DNA of 35,526 nucleotides from Promethearchaeota archaeon. GTDB lineage: Archaea; Asgardarchaeota; Hermodarchaeia; Hermodarchaeales; Hermodarchaeaceae. The position numbers were made by a program, and so were the translations under genes. The stretch is taken from contig JBHLPR010000022.1 of the NCBI GenBank assembly GCA_048939245.1, forward strand, positions 1 to 35,526, written 5' to 3'. Position 1 is the first letter of the stretch. Each line of letters opens with the position of its first letter. Shown one piece after another: positions 4,500-35,526 of this stretch. The notes beneath the pieces were generated by a model. It did no database searches, had not been told where the DNA came from, and saw nothing but the letters and a program-made list of their open reading frames with translations.

Positions 4500-5177
4500 A
4501 TGAAGTTGAAGGCTTTCTTATCTGATCTTGATGGTACTCTCATTGATACCCGGGAAAGAGCGATACATGCTCACTCCAACGGATTACATGCCGTTGGATA
4601 CGCTGTGCTTCCTACGCAAATCCGCTCATTATACTACTACTCCTTTGATACCCGGGACTTGCTCAATCGGTTGAACATACAGCTCTCTAAGTCTGAATAC
4701 ATGAAATATCTCTCAGGGTTCCGAGAATACTTCTTCTCTGCTATCCACCACTCACGAGTCTTTCCAGCCACGATACACGCCCTAAAACATCTTCGACCGC
4801 TCACCGAACATATGCGCATAATCACTTCACGACAAGATAGTCACCAGGCACGACAAGAAATCAAGCATTTTGGGCTGGATTCATGGTTTGAAGATATTGT
4901 CACACGAGGAGACTTAGCTACTGCTGAAGGTCAAGACCGGATTCCCCTTTTTCCATTTGTACCACACCGTCAGCGATTAATCAAGTTGGCACTCAAAGAT
5001 GTCAAAACTGAAGGTGATGTATGGGTAGTTGGCGATTCAAAAGGGGAACTGGAAGCTGCGAAAAGCCTTGGTTATGTCACCATCGGTGTTCTCACCGGGT
5101 TTGGCACCATTGATGATTTAACTCCCGTTGCTACCCATGTAATCAATTCAATTGCAGAGATTGTGCACCTTATCTAG
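4500..5177 (+). CDS. HAD-superfamily hydrolase, paralog 2
   Basis: DLDGTL, ITSR, VGDS. Same length (225 aa) as the upstream gene and colinear with it. Confidence 0.88.
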   Translation: MKLKAFLSDLDGTLIDTRERAIHAHSNGLHAVGYAVLPTQIRSLYYYSFDTRDLLNRLNIQLSKSEYMKYLSGFREYFFSAIHHSRVFPATIHALKHLRPLTEHMRIITSRQDSHQARQEIKHFGLDSWFEDIVTRGDLATAEGQDRIPLFPFVPHRQRLIKLALKDVKTEGDVWVVGDSKGELEAAKSLGYVTIGVLTGFGTIDDLTPVATHVINSIAEIVHLI

Positions 5178-5201
5178 CTTGCCGAAAGAAGGAAAGTAGT
5201 C

Positions 5202-6671
5202 ATGAGCCCTTCCTCTCCTCCCCCACATTCACAGGATAACATTTCCGATACTCGCCGATTTGAACCACGGCAGTATCAAGAACATATCCTTCAACGAATC
5301 AAGGACAATTGGGAACACAATATTTTGGTGGAACTGGACTGCGGACTTGGGAAACGTGTTATCACCTTCAAATTGGTGACGGAATATTTTCCGGAGACGC
5401 GATTCATCATCACTGTGAATTCTTCTTCCTCGCTTCAAGAAACTGCGCAATACCTTGAAGAAGAGTATGGAGGTGTTGATGGGTTAGGGGTCCTTTCTCC
5501 CCGTATTCAGGGGCGTCGTCGTCAACAACTTCTTCATGACTCCCGAGTTGTGCTCTGTACGCCACGTGTGCTAGCTAATATCCTCAAAAAGGGAGGTTTT
5601 TCGAGCTCAGATTTTGAGGGACTCTTAATTAATGAGGTGGATACGCTTCTTCGACGGGTAGGAGATACTCGAGTTCTCATTCAACCTTGGAGTTATTTGC
5701 TAGAGTTTTTCAAAGAAAATTGGATTATCGGGCTTAGTGGAACACTCCGAGATGACCATGTAGTATTCAACCAAGCTCAACTCCAGATTCGTGACGAACT
5801 TCAAACACTTGCTAACTTTCTACCCAACGTTGAACTCATTAGCATGGATGAACTCATAGACACCGATTTGGATCAATATATCAAACACACTATCCTCGAT
5901 GTCATCCCTGTCGAAGATTCCGTCATACGCGCAACTTCGCTTGTCGTCGATGAACTAATCCAATCTACTCGCGATCAAATTTATCAAATGGTCCGAGAAA
6001 ACTCAGAGCAAAGTATCAGAGAACTCCCAGAATCCACTCGCATGCTACATTTGATGCTCCATGAACTCCCCATCCCCGAAGAGCTCGCCCAGCAATATAG
6101 TGGACTCCTCATGACCCGAAAATATCTTTACGGTATGGCCTCCAAGAGCTTTCGCCGATATCTTCATCATCCCACGATCAAATCCCAGATTGATATTAAC
6201 CGCATGATGCAAGACTGGCCAAAAGTTACCCCTAAATCTCTGAAAGCTCGAGACCTAGCATTGAAGGCGAAAAGAACTATCATCCTCTCCTCATATCTCA
6301 ATGTCGTGAGCGAAATCGAAGGACTGCTACAGGAGAAAGGCGTTCACACTTTCCAGCTTACTGGACGAACTCCAGACAAACAAGCTGTTTTAGCCGATTT
6401 CAAACACGCTAAAACTCCAGCGGCTGTGATTCTCTCGCCAGTCGGTGAACGAGATCTCGACTTGCCCGATGCTGATCTTCTTATTATCTGTGATACTGTA
6501 AATACGGTGAAGACGATTTACCAGAAAATGAAACGCAGCCGGGGTGGACGAGTTAGCTTTCTAGTCTATGCAAATACATCCGAAGTCGGAAAGTTACGAC
6601 GTCTCCTAAATAACATTATGGACCGATATCCTTGGTCCACCCGATATGGCAATACAAGCGCCTTGTACTAA
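5202..6671 (+). CDS. Hef/FANCM/Mph1-like SF2 helicase with degenerate ATPase motifs and no ERCC4 nuclease domain
   Basis: EPRQYQ, NILVELDCGLGKR (cf. LPTGLGKT), CTPR, INEVD (cf. DEAH), GLSGT, GERDLDLP, QKMKRSRGG (cf. QRxGRxGR). Confidence 0.75.
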   Translation: MSPSSPPPHSQDNISDTRRFEPRQYQEHILQRIKDNWEHNILVELDCGLGKRVITFKLVTEYFPETRFIITVNSSSSLQETAQYLEEEYGGVDGLGVLSPRIQGRRRQQLLHDSRVVLCTPRVLANILKKGGFSSSDFEGLLINEVDTLLRRVGDTRVLIQPWSYLLEFFKENWIIGLSGTLRDDHVVFNQAQLQIRDELQTLANFLPNVELISMDELIDTDLDQYIKHTILDVIPVEDSVIRATSLVVDELIQSTRDQIYQMVRENSEQSIRELPESTRMLHLMLHELPIPEELAQQYSGLLMTRKYLYGMASKSFRRYLHHPTIKSQIDINRMMQDWPKVTPKSLKARDLALKAKRTIILSSYLNVVSEIEGLLQEKGVHTFQLTGRTPDKQAVLADFKHAKTPAAVILSPVGERDLDLPDADLLIICDTVNTVKTIYQKMKRSRGGRVSFLVYANTSEVGKLRRLLNNIMDRYPWSTRYGNTSALY

Positions 6672-6711
6672 ACTCAATCAGCTTCTTTTTGAACCTATCT
6701 TCAGATGGATG

Positions 6712-7263
6712 TTAATTCGTGAGCCATCGATACCACACTGCGATACTGACAAGACTAACAAACATTGAAAGGAAGACAGTTGAAATGGCAATGCCCCAAA
6801 GTACGGAAATCGTCTCTGGAAGATACAATGGGTTTTGAGGAAAGGGTGGCATGGAAATCTCAGCTATACTAAACAGGGTTGGCATAAAGAAAAACCACTG
6901 CGTCCATAATGCCACCATCACAACTGTTACAGCTGTACTCAGCAGAAACCACCGTAAATGATGCGGTTGGTTTGCTGGATGTGATGCCACACTAATCAAC
7001 AGCATAGAAAGCCACGGACCAAACAGGGATGTGACAACAATCATTGATGACTGAAAACTAAGAAGAACCCCGATGAGATGAACCACTATGCTTTCAGGAG
7101 GCAGAGTGGTATTTTGCAGAATCGATACAGCACTCAAGGCTTCAACGAGAAACACAAAAGCAACAATCAAGATAACCGTTACAGCAGCTGAGAATAATAG
7201 AAACAGAATTCGCCAGTACAACCTCCGTCCAGGATATACTGAAAAATCATATGTAAATGCCAA
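6712..7263 (-). CDS. Hypothetical membrane protein with about 4 TM segments (paralog A)
   Basis: Four hydrophobic segments. Shares YPG...WR, W.SM......HP and a C-terminal VW..WL with the neighbouring gene. Confidence 0.75.
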   Translation of the reverse strand: MAFTYDFSVYPGRRLYWRILFLLFSAAVTVILIVAFVFLVEALSAVSILQNTTLPPESIVVHLIGVLLSFQSSMIVVTSLFGPWLSMLLISVASHPANQPHHLRWFLLSTAVTVVMVALWTQWFFFMPTLFSIAEISMPPFPQNPLYLPETISVLWGIAISTVFLSMFVSLVSIAVWYRWLTN

Positions 7264-7363
7264 AGAAGCTCCCTCGTTTACAAAACGGAGGCTTTCGTAT
7301 TAAAATGCACGGATAGGGATGACTTGAATCGTTTTTCTTGTGTGTGATTCTCTAATTATGGAT

Positions 7364-7864
7364 CTACTTCAAAGGTCTAGGGTTGAGCCACTTCCACCAC
7401 ACGACAATGCTTTGTATGGCAATGAAGAATCCAATAATTGTAAAAATAATTGAGTTCGCTACTAAGATATTCAAAATGCCCCAATCTGGGGGAGGCATCA
7501 AATTAGCCCAATGGAAGTACTGTATGAATTCTCCCCAACAAAGACTAACAAACGTGGCAACTAACAATCCGTTAGTCACCCATTCGCCATATTTGGGGTG
7601 TTTTGGGTGAGTGCATCCAAAGACTACAATCATGCTATACCAAGCACCAATAAGCACTGTAATTGACACGATTAATATGAAGTTAAAGAACGAGTTGGGG
7701 CTTGCCAACCACCAAACGGATTGCAGCATGGCTTGTCTGACCAATTCAAACAGAACGAGTTGACTCACAAATAAGCTGATGATAGCAATTGTCAGAATTA
7801 TGAATCCTACTCGCCAGACACGATTAAAACCAGGATATAACTCTACTATTCGATCCATGCCCAA
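7364..7864 (-). CDS. Hypothetical membrane protein with about 4 TM segments (paralog B)
   Basis: Four hydrophobic segments; motifs shared with 6712-7263. Confidence 0.75.
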   Translation of the reverse strand: MGMDRIVELYPGFNRVWRVGFIILTIAIISLFVSQLVLFELVRQAMLQSVWWLASPNSFFNFILIVSITVLIGAWYSMIVVFGCTHPKHPKYGEWVTNGLLVATFVSLCWGEFIQYFHWANLMPPPDWGILNILVANSIIFTIIGFFIAIQSIVVWWKWLNPRPLK

Positions 7865-7981
7865 ACAACTCCGAACCTCGGGGTCAGTTACTAGTGTGTC
7901 CTATCTAGCATGACTCCAATTATATCTCTGTATTACAAGGATTTAACAATTCAAAACAATGTTGGAACATGTGAATCACGC

Positions 7982-8614
7982 ATGGTCGAACAAGAAATTC
8001 AATCGAATGAAGAACAATCACGGATTCCACCGGTCTTTCCTGTGTATATCTTCGAGAGGACTTGCAAAGAGATATTCAACTACTGCCTTGATGCAGCTTT
8101 AGGTCCCTCACGACGGGAAGCCTTAGGCGTCATCCTGGGCTTTCGCCGAATCTGGAATGGAGAAAAATACATTCGGGTCACCGATTGGGCAACGGGACGT
8201 GTTGAAGCCAGTATTGCTCATGCACGATTCACACCTGAAGGCATTCTCGAATATCGACTTGCACTCCATGACCGGTACGGAAATAATCCTCATACTCCTC
8301 GGGTCGTAGGTCTTTGGCATTCACATCCGTTTGGAGGCAATCCTCACTTTTCCTCGACCGATTTGAACACATTCTTTAATACGCCCTTTTGTGCTGAAGG
8401 AAACGTGTTCTTTTTGATTGATCCAATAAGTGAGATTTTTAAAGTCTACATGCTCCGCGAACGCCTTGATGAGCCTGGTCTACAACTTGAACAAGTAAAA
8501 TGGTGTACGTATCGTCCCTCTGTTCCCCTTGGTAAACCTGAATCTCGCAAAGACTTGGTCGCACCTGAGGAGGTTGAACCCGGTAATGACGAGGAAAACG
8601 CCCACGCCGATTGA
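7982..8614 (+). CDS. JAB/MPN+ (JAMM) metalloprotease, putative Ubl maturase/deconjugase
   Basis: REALG Glu and WHSHPFGGNPHFSSTD (HxH...SxxD). The start is probably ATG 7982 (the ORF is open from 7910). Confidence 0.9.
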   Translation: MVEQEIQSNEEQSRIPPVFPVYIFERTCKEIFNYCLDAALGPSRREALGVILGFRRIWNGEKYIRVTDWATGRVEASIAHARFTPEGILEYRLALHDRYGNNPHTPRVVGLWHSHPFGGNPHFSSTDLNTFFNTPFCAEGNVFFLIDPISEIFKVYMLRERLDEPGLQLEQVKWCTYRPSVPLGKPESRKDLVAPEEVEPGNDEENAHAD

Positions 8615-9500
8615 TCTTCATTTCTTTGAGAAGGATCATCATGATCGAACTCGCCGCTGGTTAGGGGTCACCAATCTAGAAACAATTCGACAGTCTACAG
8701 TACTCATGATTGGGGCTGGCGCTGTGGGTAACGAGGTATGTAAGAATCTTGGGTTACTGGGTATTGGCAAAATTATTCTGGTCGATCCTGATAAGGTCGC
8801 GACCTCGAATTTGAATCGGTGTGTGTTCTTTCGACCTGAGGATCATGATGTGAAGTCCAAAGTCGATGCTGTGGCGGAACGACTCCCTGAACTAGCGACC
8901 GATACACGAATCGACCCTTATGCTATTCCTATTCAAGAAGCACCTGATAGTGTTTGGGATGTGGATCTCGTGCTCGTCGGGGTGGATAATCATTATGCAC
9001 GTTACTTGTTAAACGCCAAGAATCTCAGCTTAGATTCCCCTTTACCGTTGATTAATGGAGCTATGGGAAAAGATTTCGTTACCATTGATGTTCTGGCGCC
9101 ACCACACACAGCATGTCTAGTATGTTCTTGGAGTAAAGACTTTGTCGATGCTATTGTTGCGAATCAAGTGCGCACCCGCTGTGACCCTTTCTTCGTTGAT
9201 ACTCTGCCTCGCTTTCCCATGATTAGTTTCGTCACCTCGATTGTTGGCGCAGTGATGTCCTGGGAGGCGACCAAAGTGCTAGTAGGTCTACAACAATGGC
9301 GTAAAACAGGCAAATGGCAACAAGACTTGAAACCTGCTCTAGGGCGATACATCAAATACGACTTACAACGACATGAGACATCAACCGGAGCAATCCTGCC
9401 CAATCCCCGTTGCAGTGAGGCCTTCTGCCGTTCCAAACGAAAATATGCCCAATCTCTAAGAGGCTTGGAAACCCACGACCTGTCTCACCTTCCACGTTGA
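8586..9500 (+). CDS. ThiF/MoeB/UBA-family E1 activating enzyme
   Basis: GAGAVG, DPDKVATSNLNR, GVDN..AR, CLVC plus C-terminal CSEAFC Zn ligands, and a putative catalytic Cys in RTRCD. ATG 8586 overlaps the end of the JAB gene. Confidence 0.92.
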   Translation: MTRKTPTPIDLHFFEKDHHDRTRRWLGVTNLETIRQSTVLMIGAGAVGNEVCKNLGLLGIGKIILVDPDKVATSNLNRCVFFRPEDHDVKSKVDAVAERLPELATDTRIDPYAIPIQEAPDSVWDVDLVLVGVDNHYARYLLNAKNLSLDSPLPLINGAMGKDFVTIDVLAPPHTACLVCSWSKDFVDAIVANQVRTRCDPFFVDTLPRFPMISFVTSIVGAVMSWEATKVLVGLQQWRKTGKWQQDLKPALGRYIKYDLQRHETSTGAILPNPRCSEAFCRSKRKYAQSLRGLETHDLSHLPR

Positions 9501-10328
9501 ACTTAACCGAGGAGGACTAGTGTGTGGTTGTTGTCTCCAACTGACCTTGAATTCACGATTCGCCCGGATATCCATCCAATTCCCAATAATCAAGGGAAGG
9601 TGCCGATTCGTGATGCCCAGCCATCCATTGGAGCCAAACCAAGTTGGATCCATAGGCACCCACTGATTCCGAATCCATACCTCACTCCATCCATGCCGCT
9701 CCCATTTCTTCTTCGAAGCTGCGAATCCAGAGATTAACCGCGCAGGAATCTTTCTAGCTCTACAGATTGCTGCAAATAGCGCTGAGTACTCCGTACAGTC
9801 ACCAACTTGTTGTTCAATTGCGTATGCTGCCCCTCGCTCATGCTCTTGAGGAACATAACGGAGAGTTTTGGTGACTGCTCGCATAGCTGCTTTGATAAAG
9901 GGAATCAGCTTCCGATGTTTTTTGGCAAGATCACGGGCAAGATCTTTTATCAAGTGGTGATGGGACTCGATGAAATATTCGGGTTCTATATATGACTGCA
10001 GCCGGTTGGGGATTAAGCGATTTTGAATATCTGGTGATGGTTGATAGTGGATGGAGCGATTTCGAATTAAAGCGATGTATCCGCAGGTGAATGTATCATT
10101 TCCTGATAAGTGTGGACACGAGATATTCAGCCAGTTATTTCCCTCTTTATCACTAGCATGCCTACTCGTATTTGGATATGGTTTAATCTCCAACAGCTGT
10201 TGATACGGTTCAAAGGGTGGAGGAAACGCAAGCAGAATTCGAATGTTCGTTAAGGGGCTCGTAGTGGTATTCACTACTTGGGTTTGGTAGGTTAGACGAT
10301 GAGTCAGAATGGCTGAACCTGAAATCAT
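9456..10328 (-). CDS. Transglutaminase-like (papain-fold) protein with an intact Cys-His-Asp triad
   Basis: GDCTEYSALF, IPARLISG, HGWSEVW, WVPMDPTW. Confidence 0.9.
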   Translation of the reverse strand: MISGSAILTHRLTYQTQVVNTTTSPLTNIRILLAFPPPFEPYQQLLEIKPYPNTSRHASDKEGNNWLNISCPHLSGNDTFTCGYIALIRNRSIHYQPSPDIQNRLIPNRLQSYIEPEYFIESHHHLIKDLARDLAKKHRKLIPFIKAAMRAVTKTLRYVPQEHERGAAYAIEQQVGDCTEYSALFAAICRARKIPARLISGFAASKKKWERHGWSEVWIRNQWVPMDPTWFGSNGWLGITNRHLPLIIGNWMDIRANREFKVSWRQQPHTSPPRLSSTWKVRQVVGFQAS

Positions 10329-10711
10329 GGTTCCTGCCCATTTGATGTTGTTGATTCCTCGCTCTGGGCCTCGTCGTCATCAAGAATAATAACTCTACCT
10401 TCAGACGTGTGTTGTGGTTTTCGGTGAACATCACCCAAAAACACCACTTTCGAACCTCGACTAGAATTAGAGATTTCGGCTTCGCGACGTGGTCCGAGGA
10501 ATCGGCTGAAATGGGGCACATGCGTTTCAGTGCCTCGTGCAATGGCTCCTGGACAAATGTCTTCGCCTGCTTCTAACAATAAGGCACGGCAACTAGCACA
10601 AATGTAGCTCCCACAAGATGTGCATATCCACCATTGGCTCCTTGCTTCTTCGAGAGTCACTTGTGAATCGCAAGCCACACATTTGATATGCGATGCCCCG
10701 TGGACACTCAT
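10325..10711 (-). CDS. RING-like zinc-finger protein with a SIM-like acidic tail (putative E3)
   Basis: CVAC-x15-CTSC-x4-CASC-x11-CP...H; tail motifs KVVFLGD and RVIILDDDE. ATGA overlaps with the genes on both sides. Confidence 0.7.
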   Translation of the reverse strand: MSVHGASHIKCVACDSQVTLEEARSQWWICTSCGSYICASCRALLLEAGEDICPGAIARGTETHVPHFSRFLGPRREAEISNSSRGSKVVFLGDVHRKPQHTSEGRVIILDDDEAQSEESTTSNGQEP

Positions 10712-10926
10712 TCTTCTTGGTTCTCCTTCTCAGATTCTTTTCGGACATGGTGAACAGTGACTGAATAATGTGGGGAGAAATTCGGTGGCCGTTCTTCTTC
10801 AAATGGGATGTCTCGTTCTTGTAAGATCACAATCCCGTTATCCTTTGAGAGGTCTTCTGGTGAAGGTTGCTCGTTTTTATTGGGTTCCTCGGTATTTTTT
10901 TTATCATTAGGTGGCTGCTCTGCCAT
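10708..10926 (-). CDS. Small acidic, disordered protein with a SIM-like motif
   Basis: 72 aa, strong GGAGG SD, ATGA overlap with the next gene; rich in P/E/N/K with a GIVILQERD core. Confidence 0.7.
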   Translation of the reverse strand: MAEQPPNDKKNTEEPNKNEQPSPEDLSKDNGIVILQERDIPFEEERPPNFSPHYSVTVHHVRKESEKENQEE

Positions 10927-10938
10927 TAGACTCTCCTC

Positions 10939-11685
10939 CTAACGATCTTCATCATCAAGAATCCGTACAGTTGATTTTTCTTCAGGTTTATCTAGAATTT
11001 GGGGAGTTTTTCGTTGTGAAGTATCTGATGATGAATGAGGTGAAAGAATCTGGACCCGGCCCTGTCGTGGTGAGGTAGAGGCACCAGCTTGGTGTCTCGC
11101 TTCCCATAACCGGTCTAAGGTTTCGACGATATTTTTTGTGTCCTGTTCGTACCATGCCATCGCCGAACTATTGAGTCCATGATCTGATTCAAACTGGGAT
11201 GGTGGCTCTACGCGATCTGGTTTTAGCAGCACAAAGAATGGTAGATCCTCGAGAATTCGGTCAAGCTCTCCTCGAACGGAATAGCACGCATGACCTGTTC
11301 CACTGGCGGCGAGTCGAGGATGAAAAAGGGGGGTTTCAGCTGCAGGTCGGATGGTACCGATATTTTGTGGATATTCTCGTGGTAAATCAAAAACGAATCG
11401 ATGTTCATATCGGATAGCACCTTCATCCGTGAGTGAACGTGGTTGACGGACGATTCCAGGTAGATTCCGCATGGTGAATCGAATACGTTTGTATGCACCA
11501 TCACGATATCGGGCGATAATCGCAACGGTGAAATCACGATTACTCCAGGTGGTATTTTCTCGCCGTGGCGGGTCTGGATCCCATCCACGTCGCCCATAGA
11601 GATTATTGATAGTATCAAAAAATGTTTGAATCTGTGTTTCCACTCGGGCGTTGAAAAGTTCAATCGAGAATACGGGTCGTGTCAT
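10939..11685 (-). CDS. E2/UBC-fold conjugating enzyme with a disordered C-terminal tail
   Basis: FVFDLPREYP...TPLFHPRLAASGTGHAC fits the UBC pattern P-x-x-YP...FHPN...G-x-x-C, with the catalytic Cys present. ATG 11685 follows GAGGG (the ORF is open from 11700). Confidence 0.85.
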   Translation of the reverse strand: MTRPVFSIELFNARVETQIQTFFDTINNLYGRRGWDPDPPRRENTTWSNRDFTVAIIARYRDGAYKRIRFTMRNLPGIVRQPRSLTDEGAIRYEHRFVFDLPREYPQNIGTIRPAAETPLFHPRLAASGTGHACYSVRGELDRILEDLPFFVLLKPDRVEPPSQFESDHGLNSSAMAWYEQDTKNIVETLDRLWEARHQAGASTSPRQGRVQILSPHSSSDTSQRKTPQILDKPEEKSTVRILDDEDR

Positions 11686-15988: not shown

Positions 15989-16632
15989 CGACATCCAATC
16001 CCCCCTCTTCTGAATCCGCCAAACCCACCGATACGCCAAAAGACGATGAATTCGAGCAACGCCATCTCCTCGGTCAATTATTCGCCGCACTCACCGCACG
16101 ATTTCGTAATGAAGAAGGGCAACTCAGCATCGGAGTCAAACGGCAAAATCTTCTAGAAGCTCTGCATATCAACAAATCAGGGCTGACTCGTCTACTGGAT
16201 TTACTCCGGCAACAGATTTCCCCCCTTGGATTGGAATTAGTTGAATATCGATTGGGACGTGATACCCTCTATTGTATCCGAACTATCTATGGCGTTCCAG
16301 GAGAACTCTCAGATCCCGAATATGCTGTACTCGGAGTTATCATCTCCACGGTGGAACGTGCTAGTAAACATCGCCGACCGCGACACGTCTCGACGAAAGA
16401 TATCGAAACTATTCTCGTTGCCCGTGGGCGCCTTTCCCGTTATCAATTGGATAAAATCCTAAGGCGTCTGACGGAATTGGGATATATTAACCGATCTACT
16501 CGACGAGTGGCTTATGGTCCACGACTCGAACTTGAATTTGATTCGGAACGTCGCGAAGCCATCGCCAACGCTGCCACCCTCTATCTCGCTGGTGCCGTTT
16601 CTCAAAGGGAGGACACAAAGAATGAAACTTGA
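15985..16632 (+). CDS. KITE tandem winged-helix protein (Nse1/Nse3-MAGE/ScpB-like)
   Basis: LLDLLRQQISPLGLELVE (wH-A), LSDPEYAVLGVII, LDKILRRLTELGYI...YGPRLELE (cf. MAGE/Nse3 WGPRAxxE). Confidence 0.75.
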   Translation: MTTSNPPSSESAKPTDTPKDDEFEQRHLLGQLFAALTARFRNEEGQLSIGVKRQNLLEALHINKSGLTRLLDLLRQQISPLGLELVEYRLGRDTLYCIRTIYGVPGELSDPEYAVLGVIISTVERASKHRRPRHVSTKDIETILVARGRLSRYQLDKILRRLTELGYINRSTRRVAYGPRLELEFDSERREAIANAATLYLAGAVSQREDTKNET

Positions 16633-17083
16633 TCTTTCTACAGTCGGGATTAGTTGTGTGGCGTGTGGTACACGAACAACACTCGAAGAGGCAATTCAAA
16701 ATGGGTGGCATCAATGTCTCCGTTGTCAATTTTTCATTGATCCCCATTGTCTTCAAATCGTCCAAAACACCATGGGTGGTACATGTCCGTCATTTAGTCA
16801 AGGCGTTTCTCGCCATACTCTACAGCTATCTGACATTCCTTCAGAACAAATCCTCATCTTTGTAAAAGATCAATATCAGAAAGGTCGGGTCGGGGTCTTA
16901 ATTGACACTCTGTTTTATTCTAAGGATCTAAGGTTAGAAAAACCTCACCATTCGAGTCGGCTCCACCCCGAACCTGAAGAAGCCCTTACACGAGAAGAAA
17001 TTTGGCAACGCTACGGTCTTGTTTTAGTTCAGCGAACTCAGGGCAAATGGAAAACTTGGGAAAAAATTGGTACTACAGGCTAA
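16622..17083 (+). CDS. RING-like zinc-finger protein (Nse1 RING-like), paralog of 10325-10711
   Basis: CVAC...GWHQCLRC...IDPHC...CPS...H. ATG 16622 follows a GGAGG SD and overlaps the KITE stop. Confidence 0.7.
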   Translation: MKLDLSTVGISCVACGTRTTLEEAIQNGWHQCLRCQFFIDPHCLQIVQNTMGGTCPSFSQGVSRHTLQLSDIPSEQILIFVKDQYQKGRVGVLIDTLFYSKDLRLEKPHHSSRLHPEPEEALTREEIWQRYGLVLVQRTQGKWKTWEKIGTTG

Positions 17084-17505: not shown

Positions 17506-18492
17506 CTAGTCTGATTCCTTCGCTCCTACTCCAAGTTCGGTGAGGATCTTGTCAACGATCTCCTTAGCTTGTTTTTTCGTGGCTGCTGATTCCGTAGTTG
17601 GTTCATCGCGAACATCGGCAGGAAGCTGGGGGAGTCCAGCAAGTGTTCGGACAATTCCGGAGATGGCGTGTTTAGCGACTGACACTTCGGATCCTCCGGA
17701 TAGTAATACGACTAATCGACCTGAACAGACTTCTTCTGCGGCCTGCATAAGAATCTCCGTCATAGCTGGAAAGGCCGCTAATGACAGATTAAATCCACCA
17801 TAATCCAATGCGTGTGCATCGTGTCCCATATTCCATAGAATCATCTCGGGGCGAATCTGACGGGCCAAGGGGTGCACCAATCGGCGAACTGCTGTGACAA
17901 AGGAGTCATCACTACTGCTGCTGGGAAAGGGAACGTCTATATGGCGGTGTGTGACCAAATCGAAGCTCTCTCGAAAACTCGCTTCAAAATTCAGATGGTA
18001 TACTCCTTCATCGTCACCAAGCGTATCACGAGTTCCATCTCCTGGATGGGGATCTGTATCAACAATGAAGAACCGTTTCGCTCCATGTGTTTGCTGCAAA
18101 TGGCGCACTAATAACGCTGTGTTATTGTAATAGCAGAATCCCCAAAAGGAATCACGGCTTGCATGGTGCCCAGCACAACCAGTAAAAGCAAACGCATTCG
18201 CAGCGTCACCTACCCACACAGCTTCACCAGCACGAATAGCTGAACCACTGGATACCAATGAAGCAGGATCATACCCTGAATCTTTTACCCTTCTGATGTG
18301 ATCCGAAGTATGGACCTTTAGAAGCAACTTTTCACTTACTTTCGGGGCTTCTTCTACTTTGGTCTGGGTAGCATCGAGAGTTCCAGTTTCTCGAAGATAA
18401 TCAAAGGCTGGTTGTACTCGGCCCGCCAATACTGGGTAGCCTTCAACCGCCATTAGAGGGTGGTAAAGAATAAGGGTTGGTTTCTTTCTCAT
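17506..18492 (-). CDS. Zn-dependent histone deacetylase family protein
   Basis: GHHA, GFCYYNN, DTDPHPGDGT, GHDAH..D, and LSGGS (normally EGGY). Confidence 0.92.
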   Translation of the reverse strand: MRKKPTLILYHPLMAVEGYPVLAGRVQPAFDYLRETGTLDATQTKVEEAPKVSEKLLLKVHTSDHIRRVKDSGYDPASLVSSGSAIRAGEAVWVGDAANAFAFTGCAGHHASRDSFWGFCYYNNTALLVRHLQQTHGAKRFFIVDTDPHPGDGTRDTLGDDEGVYHLNFEASFRESFDLVTHRHIDVPFPSSSSDDSFVTAVRRLVHPLARQIRPEMILWNMGHDAHALDYGGFNLSLAAFPAMTEILMQAAEEVCSGRLVVLLSGGSEVSVAKHAISGIVRTLAGLPQLPADVRDEPTTESAATKKQAKEIVDKILTELGVGAKESD

Positions 18493-18566
18493 CGTGAAAA
18501 CCGCCTTAATATATGTGGGCGAAAAAGGATTTAACAGGATATGCTATTCTACTCGACAAGCTAAGG

Positions 18567-19775
18567 ATGGGATTAGCATTGGAAATTCGAAAGATTACCA
18601 AAGATGAACGCTTGGCCCTTAATGATCTCTACCGCTACGCCTATACTGAATGGTCAGATCAGGACGTGAAGGATGAAGAATTAGATGATATGCGCATAGA
18701 AGAAACTCTTGGGGTGTTCGAAAATGGACGTTTGGTCTCGTCGTTACGTGTTCATGATTTCCAACAATCTGTGCGCGGTGTTCTCAAATCATGTGGAGGA
18801 ATCGCAGGTGTCGCCACTTACCCAGAAGCCCGACGTAAGGGATTTGTTCGTAAATTAATGCAAGAAAGCTTTACCATCATGCACAAGCAAGGGCAATCGG
18901 TTAGTATGCTCGACCCTTTCAAACAAACCTATTATGAACAATTCGGTTTCGTCGCTGCGAATGCTCCTTATCTCATTGAAGCTCCCATCAAACAGCTAAC
19001 AGTCTGGCATCCAAAGAAACAAGACTCCGATTGGACCTATGAACGCGTTCGTGCAGTCAACGCTAAAGAGGATTACTTAAACTTCGTCCGAGAGGTAGGT
19101 CCCAGTCAATATCATGGCTATATCATTTTCAAAACCATTCCCGATACCATGTGGAAACGACGAGTAAAAGATAGTGTCATCGTCTTCGTAAAATACAAGG
19201 GAAATACTGAGGCATTGAGCCGTTATCGAATCAAAGGTGAACGCATCAAAGGGCAATACCGTTCCACATTCCATGTGATTGATGCCCTTTGGCGATCTAG
19301 AGCGGCTCGAGACCGACTCTTCGCCTTTTATTTGAAGCATCAAGATCAAATCGACAACATCAGTATCCATGCTCCCTTCGAAACTAAAGTGGAACATTGG
19401 TTCAAAGATACTCGATTGAAAGTTGAGCGCAAAACAACCTGGATGGTTCGTATCATCGATGCGAAAAAAGCTATTGAGGACCTTCCAGGAGCCGGCGAGG
19501 ATATCATTTCTGTTGAACTTTCGGATAGTGATTGTCCCTGGAATAACGGTGTGTTTTCTCTGCAATCGGAAAAAGGGCGATTGCGTCTAACTGAAAGCTC
19601 CGGACACTCTGTTGTCAAAAGCTCAATCCAAGCCTTTTCTTCATTACTATATGGGACGCAGTCCCTTGAGGAACTAGAGTTCCAAGGCAATATCACAGTT
19701 TCCGAAAAATGGGCTAGACATATCCTCCAACGCTGGTTTCCCCCTCTCTCCCTGTATAATGTTGTTTACTTCTAG
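18567..19775 (+). CDS. Eis-family GNAT acetyltransferase
   Basis: GGIAGVATYPEARRKG, YYEQFGF, SCP-like C-domain (DSDCPWNNG) and a C-terminal Phe. The start was chosen by alignment to the paralog. Confidence 0.9.
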   Translation: MGLALEIRKITKDERLALNDLYRYAYTEWSDQDVKDEELDDMRIEETLGVFENGRLVSSLRVHDFQQSVRGVLKSCGGIAGVATYPEARRKGFVRKLMQESFTIMHKQGQSVSMLDPFKQTYYEQFGFVAANAPYLIEAPIKQLTVWHPKKQDSDWTYERVRAVNAKEDYLNFVREVGPSQYHGYIIFKTIPDTMWKRRVKDSVIVFVKYKGNTEALSRYRIKGERIKGQYRSTFHVIDALWRSRAARDRLFAFYLKHQDQIDNISIHAPFETKVEHWFKDTRLKVERKTTWMVRIIDAKKAIEDLPGAGEDIISVELSDSDCPWNNGVFSLQSEKGRLRLTESSGHSVVKSSIQAFSSLLYGTQSLEELEFQGNITVSEKWARHILQRWFPPLSLYNVVYF

Positions 19776-26935: not shown

Positions 26936-27682
26936 ATGTATCGGAGTTTCGCACGGTTATACACGGATGGGGATTTCCCGCAATTTAGCATACGAATCGC
27001 TGAATTTCTTCCCGCCATTTTCGAGGAATACCATATTCACCCAAAAACGATACTGGATCTAGCATGTGGTGAAGGCTCATTTGCCGTGGCGATGACTAAA
27101 CAGGGGTTTCAAGTAACTGGAGTCGATCAATCACCTGATATGATTGCCTTTGCCCGCAAAAAGGCTCAAAGCGAAAGGTTATCCATTCCGCTCTTTGAGA
27201 TGGATATCAGAAAATTAGTCCTCGATGCGTCTTTTGACGTGGTCACATGCTGGTTTGATAGTCTCAACTATCTACTTACTTTGGATGACCTTGAAACCAC
27301 ATTCATTAAGGCCGCTCAGCACCTGAATCCCGACGGGTTCTTCTTTTTTGATATGAATACAGTTTATTGGTTAACTACTCTTGCTGAACGCTATGCTGTA
27401 ACCCTTGAACGTGAAACGGAGGACATTTTCCAAGTGCATCGGCATTCTTTTGACGAGGATACTCGCATCGCTACCTTCGAAATCACCGGGTTCATCAAGG
27501 ATAATGACTGCTGGAAACGACATGTTGACGAGACTCACCATGAACGCGGATACACCCTTGACGAGATTCGTGCCTGTCTAAACAAAGCGGAACTCACTGA
27601 ACTTGCTTGCTATGGGGAACTCGAAGAACGGCTCCCCTATACTTCTAACAGCAAACGGGTTTGGTTTATAACCAAGAAATAA
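26936..27682 (+). CDS. Class I SAM-dependent methyltransferase
   Basis: ILDLACGEG, GVDQSPDM, FDVVTCWFDSLNY, LNPDGFFFFD. Confidence 0.92.
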   Translation: MYRSFARLYTDGDFPQFSIRIAEFLPAIFEEYHIHPKTILDLACGEGSFAVAMTKQGFQVTGVDQSPDMIAFARKKAQSERLSIPLFEMDIRKLVLDASFDVVTCWFDSLNYLLTLDDLETTFIKAAQHLNPDGFFFFDMNTVYWLTTLAERYAVTLERETEDIFQVHRHSFDEDTRIATFEITGFIKDNDCWKRHVDETHHERGYTLDEIRACLNKAELTELACYGELEERLPYTSNSKRVWFITKK

Positions 27683-31094: not shown

Positions 31095-33104
31095 GTGGCC
31101 ACTTCACGTCGATTCAAACTCAATCCAGATTATTCACCACGCGGTGATCAACCTAAAGCGATCACTAAGCTCATTGAAGGCTATAAAACTGGCAAGCAAC
31201 AACAAACTCTACTCGGTGTGACAGGGTCTGGCAAAACCTTCACCGTTGCCTCTATTGTTGAAGCGCTACAAAAGCCCACGCTTGTCATTGCTCCAAACAA
31301 GACCTTAGCGGCACAATTGACCAGTATGTTCCGTGAATACTTTCCCAATAACGCCGTGGAATATTACACCTCCTACTACGATTACTTTCAACCGGAAGCC
31401 TACATGCCCGCCCCGGACCTCTATATCGAAAAAGATGCGTCCATCAACGAGGAAGTTGAACGGATGCGATTATCCGCCGTGGCTTCTCTCGCGGTACGAA
31501 CAGATGTATTGATTGTGGCTACCGTCTCATGCATCTACGGCATCGGAGCCCCTGGTTCATATCGAAACCTTGTAGTAGAACTAGAAAAAGGTCAGGAAAT
31601 CCCCCGTGATGAACTCTTTGCCCGCTTAGTTCATATCAATTATACGCGGAACGATTTTGATTTCCATAGGGGAACCTTTCGCGTTCGCGGTGAAGTAATC
31701 GAAATTTTTCCCGCTTATGCAAACCACCCAATTCGCCTAGAAACCTTTGGAGACACAATCGACAGCATCTCAGACATCGCTCCAGTGAAAGGCACGGTGC
31801 TCTATGAACGGGAGAAGGTCAAGATTTTCCCTGCTAAGCAATTCACTACAGATCAGAGGATGCTGCCCGAGGTTTTAGACCAAATTGAAAATGATTTAGA
31901 AATACGTTTGAAAGAATTGGAAGAACAAAACAAAATTCTTGAGGCAGACCGCCTACGACGGCGGGTGAAATACGATATTGAAATGATGCGATCCGTGGGT
32001 TGGACCGGGGGCATTGAGAATTATTCGCGTTATTTCGATGGACGAAAAGAAGGCCAAAAACCCTACTGCTTATTAGATCATTATCCCGAAGACTTTCTCC
32101 TCGTCATCGATGAATCTCATATCACAGTTCCACAAATCGGAGGCATGTATCATGGCGATTTGTCACGAAAACGCAACCTCGTGGATTACGGTTTCCGTCT
32201 CCCTGCGGCATACGACAATCGACCCTTAACCTTTGAAGAATTCGAGCCCTATATGCGCACTGTTCTATATACATCAGCAACACCTGCTAAATACGAACGA
32301 AAACATTCCAATCAGATAGTAGAACAGATTGTACGACCAACCGGCTTAGTTGACCCCAAAATCATCGTGCGTCCAACGGAAGGGCAAGTGGAAGATCTCT
32401 TGGGAGAAATCCGTGACCGTGCCAAGAAGGATGAACGAGCCTTAGTGACCACTTTGACCAAGCGTATGGCCGAAGATTTATCTGATTATATGGTGCACGC
32501 CGGTGTTAAAGCGGAATATCTACACTCGGAGGTTGGTACACTCGAACGGATTGAGGTGCTTCGCAATCTTCGCCGTGGGAAGTATGAAGTGGTCGTTGGC
32601 ATTAACCTCCTGCGTGAAGGGCTTGATCTTCCCGAAGTCTCCTTAGTGGCTATTCTTGATGCTGATAAGGAAGGGTTTCTTCGGTCGGATACGAGTTTAA
32701 TTCAGATTATGGGTCGGGCAAGCCGGAATGTGCGCGGAACGGTGATTTTGTACGCAGACCGAATGACTGATTCAATGAAGCGCGCAATTGGTGAGAATAA
32801 TCGTCGCCGTGAAATGCAAATCGCTTATAACAAAGAACATGGCATCACACCTACCACCATTGTGAAATCCATATCTGACATCGCTGAAGGGGTCGAGCGT
32901 GTCGCTGCTGAATCACGAACTAAGGTCCGAGTACCGAAAAACTGGCGAACAGCTGATGAAAGTGATTTAGCTTTGTTAATTGTAGAATTGCGGGAAGAGA
33001 TGTTACAAGCGGCAGAGGAATTAGAGTTTGAACGTGCCGCCGAGTTACGGGATTTGATCAATGAGATTGAAGCCTATCTTGGGTTACAAAGCAAGTCCGC
33101 ATAG
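31095..33104 (+). CDS. uvrB: Excinuclease ABC subunit B
   Basis: GDQP, GVTGSGKT, YYDYFQPEAY beta-hairpin, DESH, GINLLREGLD and a C-terminal UVR domain (LEFERAAELRD). Confidence 0.98.
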   Translation: MATSRRFKLNPDYSPRGDQPKAITKLIEGYKTGKQQQTLLGVTGSGKTFTVASIVEALQKPTLVIAPNKTLAAQLTSMFREYFPNNAVEYYTSYYDYFQPEAYMPAPDLYIEKDASINEEVERMRLSAVASLAVRTDVLIVATVSCIYGIGAPGSYRNLVVELEKGQEIPRDELFARLVHINYTRNDFDFHRGTFRVRGEVIEIFPAYANHPIRLETFGDTIDSISDIAPVKGTVLYEREKVKIFPAKQFTTDQRMLPEVLDQIENDLEIRLKELEEQNKILEADRLRRRVKYDIEMMRSVGWTGGIENYSRYFDGRKEGQKPYCLLDHYPEDFLLVIDESHITVPQIGGMYHGDLSRKRNLVDYGFRLPAAYDNRPLTFEEFEPYMRTVLYTSATPAKYERKHSNQIVEQIVRPTGLVDPKIIVRPTEGQVEDLLGEIRDRAKKDERALVTTLTKRMAEDLSDYMVHAGVKAEYLHSEVGTLERIEVLRNLRRGKYEVVVGINLLREGLDLPEVSLVAILDADKEGFLRSDTSLIQIMGRASRNVRGTVILYADRMTDSMKRAIGENNRRREMQIAYNKEHGITPTTIVKSISDIAEGVERVAAESRTKVRVPKNWRTADESDLALLIVELREEMLQAAEELEFERAAELRDLINEIEAYLGLQSKSA

Positions 33105-33295
33105 CGTAGATTACTTTCACCTTGGTCTCCCCTCCGCTTATATGATTAAACAGATGTTCACGTGTGAGAAAGCTGATAAAGTAATTCAGCTAACCTGGCA
33201 CGCTGGACACAACTTATGGTCAGACTGGGTGTAGAACCGTAACTCTTATGGCAGCTGGTGCAATCGATGCCGCTGAGAATAAAGGTGAACGATGG

Positions 33296-35526
33296 GTGAG
33301 CGACGACAAGTACATTACCGTCAAAGGTGCGCGTGTACACAACTTGAAAAATATCACCGTGAAAATTCCACGGGACAAATACGTAGTGATAACTGGGCTC
33401 TCTGGTTCCGGCAAGTCTTCTCTCGCCTTTGATACCCTCTTTGCGGAAGGTCAGCGCCGGTATGTTGAATCCTTATCAGCCTATGCTCGGCAGTTTCTAG
33501 GTCGAATGGACAAACCCGATGTCGATTCCATCGAAGGGCTCAGCCCTGCAATTTCAATCGATCAGCGGTCTGCAGGGGGAAATCCCCGATCTACAGTAGG
33601 CACGACAACTGAAATCTATGATTACATGCGGCTACTTTGGGCACGAATCGGGATTCCACATTGCCACCAGTGCGGCCGTCAAATTTCTCCGCAGTCTGCT
33701 CAACAGATTGTACGACAGATTCTTGAGTTTGAAGAAGGAAAACGAGTTCGCATTCTCTCCCCTGTTGTTCGGGGACGAAAAGGCACTTACAAAGCGCTCT
33801 TCAAGAAGTTACAAAGCGAAGGATTCGTTCGGGTCCGTGTTGATGAGACTGATCATCGATTGGATAAGGATGAAATCGAGCTCGAGCGGTACAAGCTCCA
33901 TAATATCGAAATCATCGTTGATCGGCTCGTACTCAAACCAGCCGTAGAACAACGCCTTACGCAATCCGTAGAAACGGCTCTAGAGTTTGGTAATGGCCTT
34001 GTTATCGTCGATGTTCAAGGAGATCAGGAATATCTCTTTAGCGAATCAGCGGGCTGTCCCGTCTGTGGCATCAGCTTCCCAGATTTGGCACCCCGACTCT
34101 TCAGTTTTAATTCCCCATATGGGGCATGTCCCGAATGCAAAGGATTAGGATATACTCTAGAAGTCGACCCCGAGCTTGTAGTTCCTGATGCCACCAAGTC
34201 CATTCGTGAAGGGGCAATCGCTCCCTATCACGTTCCACTAAATGGATGGCGTCACCGAAGTCTAACCAGCATTGCCCAGCACTATGGCTTCAGCCTTGAT
34301 ACTCCTTTCAATGAATTAAGTCCAGAACATCAGCAAATCCTGCTATATGGTTCGGGTGAAGAGGAAATCCGATTTGAACATCGTGGGATCACTGAATCTG
34401 GACGCAAATGGGAATGGATTAGTGAAAAACCTACCATGGGCGTTATTCCAGGACTCAAACACCGTTACAAGTATACAAGTTCGGAAGTAGTCCGTGAATC
34501 CATTACTCGTTACATGGCCCAATTACCCTGTCCCGTTTGTAAAGGACGCAAATTACGCCCTGAAGCCTTGGCCGTTACAATTCAAGATAAGAGTATTGAC
34601 TATGTTACGAATTTTTCAATAGACGAAACACTAAGCTTCTTTGATGCCCTAAAACTCACAAAGAAGGAAGCTGCAATCGCTCGACAAACCCTCCGGGAAA
34701 TCAAGCAGCGACTACAATTTCTTTCTTCAGTCGGGCTTGATTATCTTACCTTGAACCGAAAATCTGCAACACTAGCGGGGGGTGAGGCTCAACGTGTTCG
34801 ACTTGCCACCCAAATTGGCTCCCGTCTCGTGGGTGTAACCTACATTCTCGACGAACCCAGCATCGGGTTACATATGCGTGATAATCAGCGTCTCCTCTCA
34901 ATGCTCCTACAACTGCGCGACCTCGGAAACACAGTATTGGTTGTTGAACATGATGAAGGCTTTATCCGGGCTGCAGACTGGATCATCGACTTGGGACCTA
35001 GCGCTGGTATTCATGGCGGACAGGTCGTTGCTGAAGGCACCGTAGCACAAATCGAAGCCAACTCAAACTCCATCACCGGGCAATACCTCCGAGGTGATAA
35101 ATTTATCTCGGTTCCTCCCACACGGCGCATCGGGAATGGTGCCAGTATTCAAATCAAAGGGGCACACCATCGTAACCTTAAGGATATTGATGTGACATTC
35201 CCACTTGGAACCTTCATTTGCATCACCGGGGTCTCTGGTTCCGGGAAGAGTACGCTTATCACAGATACGCTATATCCTGGTATCCTCTGGGAATTTCGAA
35301 GAAATCGTCACCGTCAATCTGATGCACTACTAGCTAGTTCGATTCAGAAACCAGGTCCTCTTAAGACAATTAAGGGTGTTAATCTCATCGATAAAGTCAT
35401 CTTAGTCGACCAATCCCCCATCGGACGAACCCCACGCTCAAATCCAGCAACCTATACTAAGGTCTTTGGTCCAATTCGGGAGTTATTCTCGAAAACTGAA
35501 GAAGCACGAAAACGTGGGTATCAGCC
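33296..35526 (+). CDS. uvrA: Excinuclease ABC subunit A (3' truncated; absent from the ORF track)
   Basis: GTG after AGGTGA (an in-frame ATG at 33248 is also possible). [29 protein letters not shown], Zn fingers, [16 protein letters not shown] and a second GVSGSGKST. Confidence 0.97.

Follow-up and report, generated by a model that had tools for sequence, protein, structure and literature searches.

The window studied here is a stretch of 35,526 nucleotides (positions 1 to 35,526 of contig JBHLPR010000022.1) from an Asgard archaeon of the Hermodarchaeota, whose 2.52-Mb genome assembly, in 122 contigs, has a completeness of 88%. It carries an operon that encodes, in this order, a ubiquitin-like protein (Ubl), an E2-like conjugating enzyme, a small protein of 72 residues, a RING-like zinc-finger protein and a transglutaminase, with genes for a JAB peptidase and an E1-like enzyme placed alongside. 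The E2, the 72-aa protein and the RING-like protein have disordered tails containing six short hydrophobic peptides. Judged by their sequences, all six repeat a single short linear docking motif, whose core is like that of the SUMO-interacting motif (SIM). Purifying selection acts on the motif throughout the E2 family. We propose, at close to an even chance, that each copy adds as a β-strand to a common folded partner, most likely the acidic Ubl of the operon, and does so non-covalently.

A recurring motif in disordered tails

An earlier note on this DNA had listed six SIM-like peptides in three consecutive proteins and had placed them in disordered regions. All six are present, on the minus strand, with three in the E2, one in the 72-aa protein and two in the RING-like protein (Table 1). 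The disorder is borne out as well. An AlphaFold2 (AF2) model of the E2 has a predicted template modelling (TM) score of 0.67, and its last 46 residues have a predicted local distance difference test score (pLDDT) of ~33, are without secondary structure and are not docked on the core. In addition, polar and variable sequence flanks the peptides in each of the three carriers.

All 18 genomes searched within the same family, which come from two genera, contain the E2, and so does one further family of the phylum. Across the 18 related genomes, each of the six sites is retained while the spacers between them drift: in the alignments, motif columns are 70–100% conserved versus 20–40% for the tail spacers. 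The earlier note had asked for conservation of the motifs in otherwise variable tails, and this is what is seen, the motifs standing out as conserved islands in Hermodarchaeota, in Heimdall-type lineages and in other Asgard lineages. Motif 1 of the E2 reads G-R-[VI]-x-[IF]-[LI] in 17/17 full-length relatives, with columns at 70–90% and spacers at 20–40%. Motif 2 is also conserved in relatives, and 46 instances of RR-x-P-[RQ]-[IV]-L-[DE] occur in E2 homologues. The terminal motif 3 is the copy that is kept family-wide, even in single-copy homologues of 25–45% identity.

A profile search with the E2 family over 5.8 billion proteins returned only 74 clusters, all of them Asgard where the source is named. 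About 70 of the 72 full-length homologues have one to three copies of the motif, usually at the extreme C-terminus, and these include Heimdall-type and other members at 25–45% identity. The motif is therefore a hallmark of the family and no peculiarity of one genome. Its consensus is G-[RK]-[VI]-[RQK]-[IF]-[LI]-[DE]. The logo of the E2 family, built from 118 instances, shows G at position −2 and R/K at −1, followed by V/I, R/Q/K, I, L and then D/E. At core position 3, 95% of instances have I, and at position 4, 90% have L; position 1 was preset to V/I by the search pattern and divides into V (77%) and I (23%). In the flanks of the E2 instances, R/K occupies −1 in 72% and D/E follows the core in 71%. 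The Heimdall-type tails are Lys-rich.

The core to which this tail is attached resembles known E2 enzymes in its predicted fold. Foldseek gives a probability of 1.0 to UBC9, UBE2G1, Rad6 and other E2s, with TM-scores by target of 0.44–0.54, and H126, P127, R128 and C138 (alignment numbering) are invariant in 47 sequences. The E2 has no Pfam match at E up to 0.1, UQ_con (PF00179) included, and no E2 is found among the PDB sequence matches of the family profile. The only PDB match of that profile (positions 77–194) is 4y6c_A, at E 4e-4, which was deposited as a Podospora anserina putative kinesin light chain.

The other two carriers behave in the same way. In the 72-aa protein, which has no Pfam match, the motif [RKN]-[RK]-[IV]-x-[IV]-L is present in 19/19 sequences, while the N-terminal 30 residues vary freely. 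The segment after the motif has invariant E37, P41, E44, P47, P48 and N49, and its PPN core is also found in distant homologues; this conserved segment may be a second contact site, as its pattern of conservation suggests. The RING-like protein has nine invariant Cys/His residues in its first part (C11, C14, C30, C33, C38, C41, C53, H64 and H67) and sub-threshold Pfam matches to zf-UDP, IBR and zf-RING_5; its atlas feature score of 0.90 and its TM-scores of 0.56–0.65 to RING families are leads only. In its tail, motif A takes the form S-x-[VI]-x-[IFL]-L-x-[DN]-V in 18/18 sequences and motif B the form G-G-[KR]-V-[VI]-[IF]-[LF] in 18/18, where G105 and V107 are invariant. The tail-bearing RING-like protein is absent from the Heimdall-type and 'Asgardarchaeia' operons that were read and was seen only in Hermodarchaeota loci.

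Four-residue hydrophobic patterns are common in proteomes generally, a loose six-residue form giving 59 matches in 765,000 residues, and the six peptides might in principle be a functionless product of chance or of the composition of low-complexity tails. When each of the three tails was shuffled, the core [VI]-x-[IFV]-[LI] turned up 0.17 times on average versus the 5 observed, and at least 5 arose in 0/20,000 shuffles. The core placed between polar flanks occurs 5 times genome-wide (~2,600 crude open reading frames, ORFs), 3 of these being in the genes under study. Taken with the conservation in 18 genomes and in about 70 E2 clusters, the shuffle test and the rarity in a polar context effectively refute chance, to which we leave a vanishingly small probability.

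Three further stretches were considered as copies and rejected. The IRIL-like stretch near the N-terminus of the transglutaminase is part of a folded domain and is evenly conserved in 17 orthologues. The C-terminus of a methyltransferase (26936–27682) resembles a fold element. Finally, the tail of a small membrane protein on contig C46 (37418–37777, locus L082) has its own distinct conserved consensus, G-K-G-ψ-ψ-x-ψ-E-D-G-G-P-T. This tail is cytoplasmic, and the protein has a paralogue on contig C70.

The operon and its relatives

The positions of the genes and of the motif copies are collected in Table 1. The JAB and E1 genes converge on the Ubl operon, and an SMC-type operon diverges from it at 12300, so that these two lie head-to-head. 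The E1 ORF as listed begins at a TTG and has its first 86 bases in common with the end of the JAB gene (8529–8614); the true start may be an internal Met ~20 codons downstream of the listed TTG. Just beyond the SMC-side operon lie a gene of the histone-deacetylase family (17506–18492, minus) and one for a GNAT/SCP2 acetyltransferase (18513–19775).

Table 1. Genes and motif copies of the conjugation locus, and uvrA, in window coordinates
Feature	Position	Strand	Remarks
JAB/JAMM peptidase	7910..8614	+	Pfam Prok-JAB, 27.7 bits, above cut-off
E1-like adenylating enzyme, 323 aa	8529..9500	+	Pfam ThiF, E 2e-35, aa 45-285
Transglutaminase-core protein	9456..10328	-	last gene of the operon; Pfam Transglut_core, E 1e-20
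RING-like zinc-finger protein, 128 aa	10325..10711	-	Cys/His-rich domain aa 1-70; disordered tail aa 70-128
RING tail motif B (GRVIIL + acidic run)	10370..10399	-	VIIL + run = aa 107-114
RING tail motif A (KVVFLGD)	10430..10450	-	VVFL = aa 89-92
72-aa partner protein	10708..10926	-	
Segment after the 72-aa protein motif (E-R-D-I-P-F-E-E-.-.-P-P-N-F-S-P)	10771..10818	-	conserved
72-aa protein motif (GIVILQ)	10819..10836	-	GIVIL = aa 31-35
E2-like enzyme, 253 aa	10939..11700	-	UBC-fold core, invariant HPR...C; disordered tail from ~aa 207
E2 C-terminal motif 3 (VRIL, then acidic end)	10942..10968	-	aa 245-253
E2 tail motif 2 (PQIL)	10993..11004	-	aa 233-236; weaker P-[RQ]-[IV]-L form
E2 tail motif 1 (GRVQIL)	11044..11061	-	aa 214-219
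Ubl precursor, 108 aa	11731..12057	-	mature end ..VG (codons 11743-11754) + 3 extra residues
uvrA, N-terminal part	33248..35526	+	runs off the contig; C-terminal tail on contig C93 (locus L039:151-774)

The Ubl is the most conserved protein of the operon, with 82–98% identity within the same family versus 48–83% for the motif carriers, as would be expected of a hub. Its relatives always end in VG (VA in one subgroup), followed by 0–13 variable residues; such an end needs trimming, like that of a conjugatable Ubl. An exhaustive search of 1.84 billion representatives found only 35 relatives. The Ubl has no Pfam match at E up to 0.1, and a profile search found nothing meaningful for it in the PDB. 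Its language-model features lie nearest to ubiquitin-clan domains, which is a lead only. The protein is acidic in all lineages, with a net charge of −3 to −10.

The E1 consists of a ThiF adenylation domain only and has neither a ubiquitin-fold domain (UFD) nor a separate Cys domain. Among solved sequences, it is closest to the active adenylation domains of UBA6, UBA1, UBA7 and UBA3, followed by ThiF and UBA5. Ahead of the ThiF domain, it has a region ([VL]-x-F-[FY]-E-[EK]-D, then D-R-T-R-R) that is also present in the Heimdall-type E1. Elsewhere in the genome, contig C54 (~4700–9500; loci L079–L081) encodes a canonical ubiquitin (PF00240), a UQ_con E2, a second UQ_con-like ORF and a ThiF-type E1. 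With this separate canonical ubiquitin set, two modifier systems coexist in the genome.

In other lineages, the gene sets vary, and the motif-bearing set that recurs is Ubl, E2 and small protein. A small protein follows the E2 directly in Hermodarchaeota, in genome G022, on the 'Asgardarchaeia' contig and in the Heimdall-type operon, and it also follows the Ubl-E2 fusion; a small protein with its own copy of the motif is located downstream of the E2 in every lineage examined. On the Heimdall-type contig (L073, 1–7070), genes for SMC, a kleisin-position protein, a KITE-position protein, a RING-like protein, JAB, E1, Ubl, E2 and the small protein all run in the same direction in a single array. 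Here, the E2 has three copies, and the 108-aa homologue of the small protein has its own copy together with the conserved P-P-N segment. The link between SMC and Ubl genes thus recurs in a gene order unlike the head-to-head one of the window. The 'Asgardarchaeia' contig (L076) has only Ubl, E2, small protein and transglutaminase genes, which lie amid unrelated genes, and the 9 kb to each side contain no SMC genes. At a further locus (L077), a Ubl-E2 fusion is followed by a 59-aa homologue of the small protein, and the motif is found on both.

In the Ubl-E2 fusions (P0068, P0106 and P0114), the VG of the Ubl runs into the N-terminal helix of the E2. At one more locus (L075:5549-6492), such a fusion appears to be split over two frames and is followed by two BRCT-domain proteins.

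A proposed role in docking

In the proposed mechanism, the strand of each motif copy would add to the edge of a folded partner that is common to the E2, the small protein and the RING-like protein. If this partner is the Ubl, it would be held non-covalently, as SUMO holds SIMs and UFM1 holds the UBA5 motif. The E2 tail would then find the E1-bound Ubl by gripping the Ubl itself, and the presence of the motif on every E2 of the family would follow from the E1 having no UFD with which to recruit the E2. The copies on the E2 and the RING-like protein could, in addition, hold a second Ubl or an already modified substrate, which would favour discharge, chain building or multivalent assembly. Docking on a common partner would explain why the RING-like protein has two copies. 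The small protein would act as an adaptor with two contact sites, namely the motif and the second conserved segment.

Observations in favour of the Ubl include its place as the most conserved protein of the operon and a pairing of charge, as the Ubl is acidic in all lineages and the best-conserved flank of the motif is basic. The smallest motif-bearing sets, those of the 'Asgardarchaeia' contig and of the fusion locus, have the Ubl, the E2 and the small protein in common. Either the Ubl or the E2 core is therefore the probable partner, unless it is encoded elsewhere in the genome. A complex prediction with the E2 tail (last 47 residues, 47 rows) and the mature Ubl (40 rows) gave 0.17 and 0.25 against a mark of 0.32, was run without controls and speaks neither for nor against docking.

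A further copy of the motif ends the tail of UvrA. This tail is ~20 residues long, is encoded on contig C93 and ends in G-R-V-K-I-L-S-R. In the same genus, 12/12 genomes with a readable tail have a UvrA ending in G-R-V-[KE]-I-L or in a hydrophobic-conservative variant. The UvrA motif is absent in the sister genus, where the E2 system is present, and in other Asgard families; with the sister-genus protein lacking it, we do not claim UvrA as a general client. UvrA may have joined the docking system recently as a client, although the tail sequences are suggestive only, and the motif at its end would tie nucleotide-excision repair to the Ubl system in this genus. The uvrB (31095–33104), uvrA and uvrC (C93 816–2663) genes form a cluster ~20 kb from the Ubl operon, and this synteny is kept on single contigs in relatives.

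Several points weigh against docking on the Ubl. The best-conserved flank is basic, which is unlike classical SIMs, and the acidic flank is weak or missing in the Heimdall-type tails. The Ubl has no sequence relation to SUMO, ubiquitin or UFM1 that could be detected, and its AF2 model, made from an 18-row alignment, has a mean pLDDT of 52, which is too poor for a fold search or for inspection of a groove. Charge covariation between the motif flanks and the Ubl gave no clear trend over about six lineages, which are too few independent cases. The argument from the smallest sets is not exclusive, as E1, JAB and SMC genes may lie elsewhere in the genomes with minimal operons. Finally, the copy on UvrA, found in one genus only, may have been added recently or be coincidental.

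The E2 core, too, is part of the smallest conserved sets, and this fits a different reading, in which the motif is an assembly code inside the enzyme set. Here, the tails would pair mutually, or would add to the E2 core (for example to its backside sheet) or to the RING-like domain, and so join E2, small protein and E3 in one complex. The two universal carriers, the E2 and the small protein, are neighbours in every case, and several copies per chain would fit a zipper-like pairing. Furthermore, extra elements that bind the E2 backside are frequent in eukaryotic E3s, as is generally known. Nevertheless, in the AF2 model of the full E2 the tail is neither structured nor docked, which is weak evidence, and the motif persists in the Heimdall-type and 'Asgardarchaeia' operons that have no RING-like carrier. 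The copy on UvrA is hard to reconcile with a purely internal role, and overall we consider such a code unlikely.

The UvrA copy, in turn, is consistent with a partner outside the conjugation enzymes. This could be the neighbouring Smc5/6-like complex (SMC, kleisin, KITE or, in its RING-like subunit encoded at 16514–17083, the folded C-terminal domain) or a different hub of chromatin or repair, which would bring the machinery and UvrA together on DNA. Gene order lends itself to this idea, with the Ubl operon head-to-head with the SMC operon in the window, SMC and Ubl genes joined in one array on the Heimdall-type contig, and BRCT proteins flanking a Ubl-E2 fusion. The 'Asgardarchaeia' contig argues the other way with its SMC-free surroundings and, in the loci seen, the motif tracks the E2 family and not the presence of SMC. 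An outside partner is, in our estimate, distinctly unlikely.

The copies could also be elements of regulation or turnover: an autoinhibitory strand, a tag for a protease or unfoldase, or an aggregation-prone patch that drives condensation. They are short and hydrophobic, lie exposed in disordered sequence and are often placed at the extreme C-terminus, a common site of degrons, and the operon encodes both a JAB peptidase and a transglutaminase-fold (papain-like) enzyme. However, one degron placed on exactly one pathway's enzymes, in one to three copies and family-wide, is less economical than docking, and we regard this explanation as improbable.

Returning to docking on the Ubl, its furthest-reaching form would be a genuine code for the non-covalent reading of a second, SUMO-like modifier, which Asgard archaea would run beside canonical ubiquitin. 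Such a code would be used by the E2, the adaptor and the E3, and would have begun to spread to clients such as UvrA near an Smc5/6-like complex; we hold this to be possible, if rather doubtful. Were it true, reading of a Ubl by a hydrophobic strand motif in DNA repair would predate eukaryotes. The reading of Ubl tags by strand motifs, as in SIMs, LC3-interacting regions (LIR) and UFM1-interacting motifs (UFIM), is regarded as eukaryotic pathway wiring, and a search of the available literature found no description of such motifs in an archaeal Ubl system. A conserved multi-copy motif that marks a whole Asgard-only E2 family allows such wiring to be tested directly in the prokaryotes most closely related to eukaryotes, and the ending of UvrA in the same motif in this genus is new here. 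The motif can also be used as a search handle in Asgard proteomes for clients and readers of the Ubl.

Comparison with known systems

The earlier note had likened the peptides to SIMs with acidic flanks and had compared the RING-like protein to RNF4. The first likeness stands for the core, which fits V/I-x-V/I-V/I/L; VQIL, VRIL, IVIL, VVFL and VIIL are instances of the broader hydrophobic form ψ-x-ψ-ψ or ψ-ψ-x-ψ. It does not extend to the best-conserved flank, which has G-R/K before the core and R/Q/K inside it. In SIMs proper, an acidic or phosphorylatable flank matches the basic groove of SUMO, next to whose strand β2 the motif adds as a β-strand. Acidic flanks are present in motif 3 of the E2 and motif B of the RING-like protein and are commoner in Hermodarchaeota than in other lineages, being weak or absent in the Heimdall-type tails. 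We do not file the motif as a SIM, because of this basic flank and because the putative partner that it would bind is no SUMO by sequence; it most likely works like one.

The comparison with RNF4 and with Slx5-Slx8 is loose and, for RNF4, fails on the order and number of the motifs. As in those ligases, a RING-type finger and more than one SIM-like motif are found in one small protein, and there are two modifiers in the genome. Unlike RNF4, in which a tandem array of four SIMs that reads poly-SUMO precedes the RING, the RING-like protein has only two motifs, placed C-terminal to the RING, and motifs are also found on the E2 and the small protein. Furthermore, its gene is inside the operon of the Ubl that it would read, and the RING-like carrier is missing from Heimdall-type and 'Asgardarchaeia' operons that keep the motif.

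Closer analogues are the SIMs of enzymes and ligases of the SUMO pathway (PIAS, Nse2 and ZNF451) and the UFM1-binding motif of UBA5. SIMs, which are found on SUMO E3 ligases, attach to SUMO in a hydrophobic groove (PMC12751080), and the SIMs of Nse2 boost its ligase activity (PMC8636563). The SIMs of PIAS/Siz, of Nse2 of Smc5/6, of ZNF451 and of RanBP2 have, like the motif here, a hydrophobic core that is often followed by acidic residues, lie in disordered sequence on conjugation enzymes and are sometimes present in multiple copies. The likeness to Nse2 extends to gene neighbourhood, as an Smc5/6-like operon adjoins the Ubl operon here. In contrast to the SIMs of the SUMO pathway, the universal carrier here is the E2, and the Ubl that is presumed to be the partner is acidic and unrelated in sequence to the SUMO family (Smt3/Rad60-SLD).

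UFM1 matures to a single-Gly ..VG end, and the Ubl here also matures to such an end. UBA5 contacts its E2 via a short linear sequence (PMC8481289). A broader likeness is that a ThiF-type E1 without a UFD is accompanied by short motifs in disordered tails that replace, or here would replace, domain contacts between E1, E2 and Ubl (PMC8481289). The two systems differ in that the motifs here are on the E2, the small protein and the RING-like protein, whereas that of UBA5 is on the E1; in addition, the core here has no aromatic residue, and the E1 is nearer to UBA6 and UBA1.

Among archaea, the operon of Caldiarchaeum subterraneum encodes Ub, E1, E2, a small RING protein and Rpn11 (PMC5654768). 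The operon described here is alike in bringing together a Ubl, an E1, an E2, a small RING-type protein and a JAB peptidase in an archaeon. It differs in that its E2 and Ubl match no Pfam family, in that the E2 is Asgard-only, and in the addition of a motif-bearing small protein and a transglutaminase.

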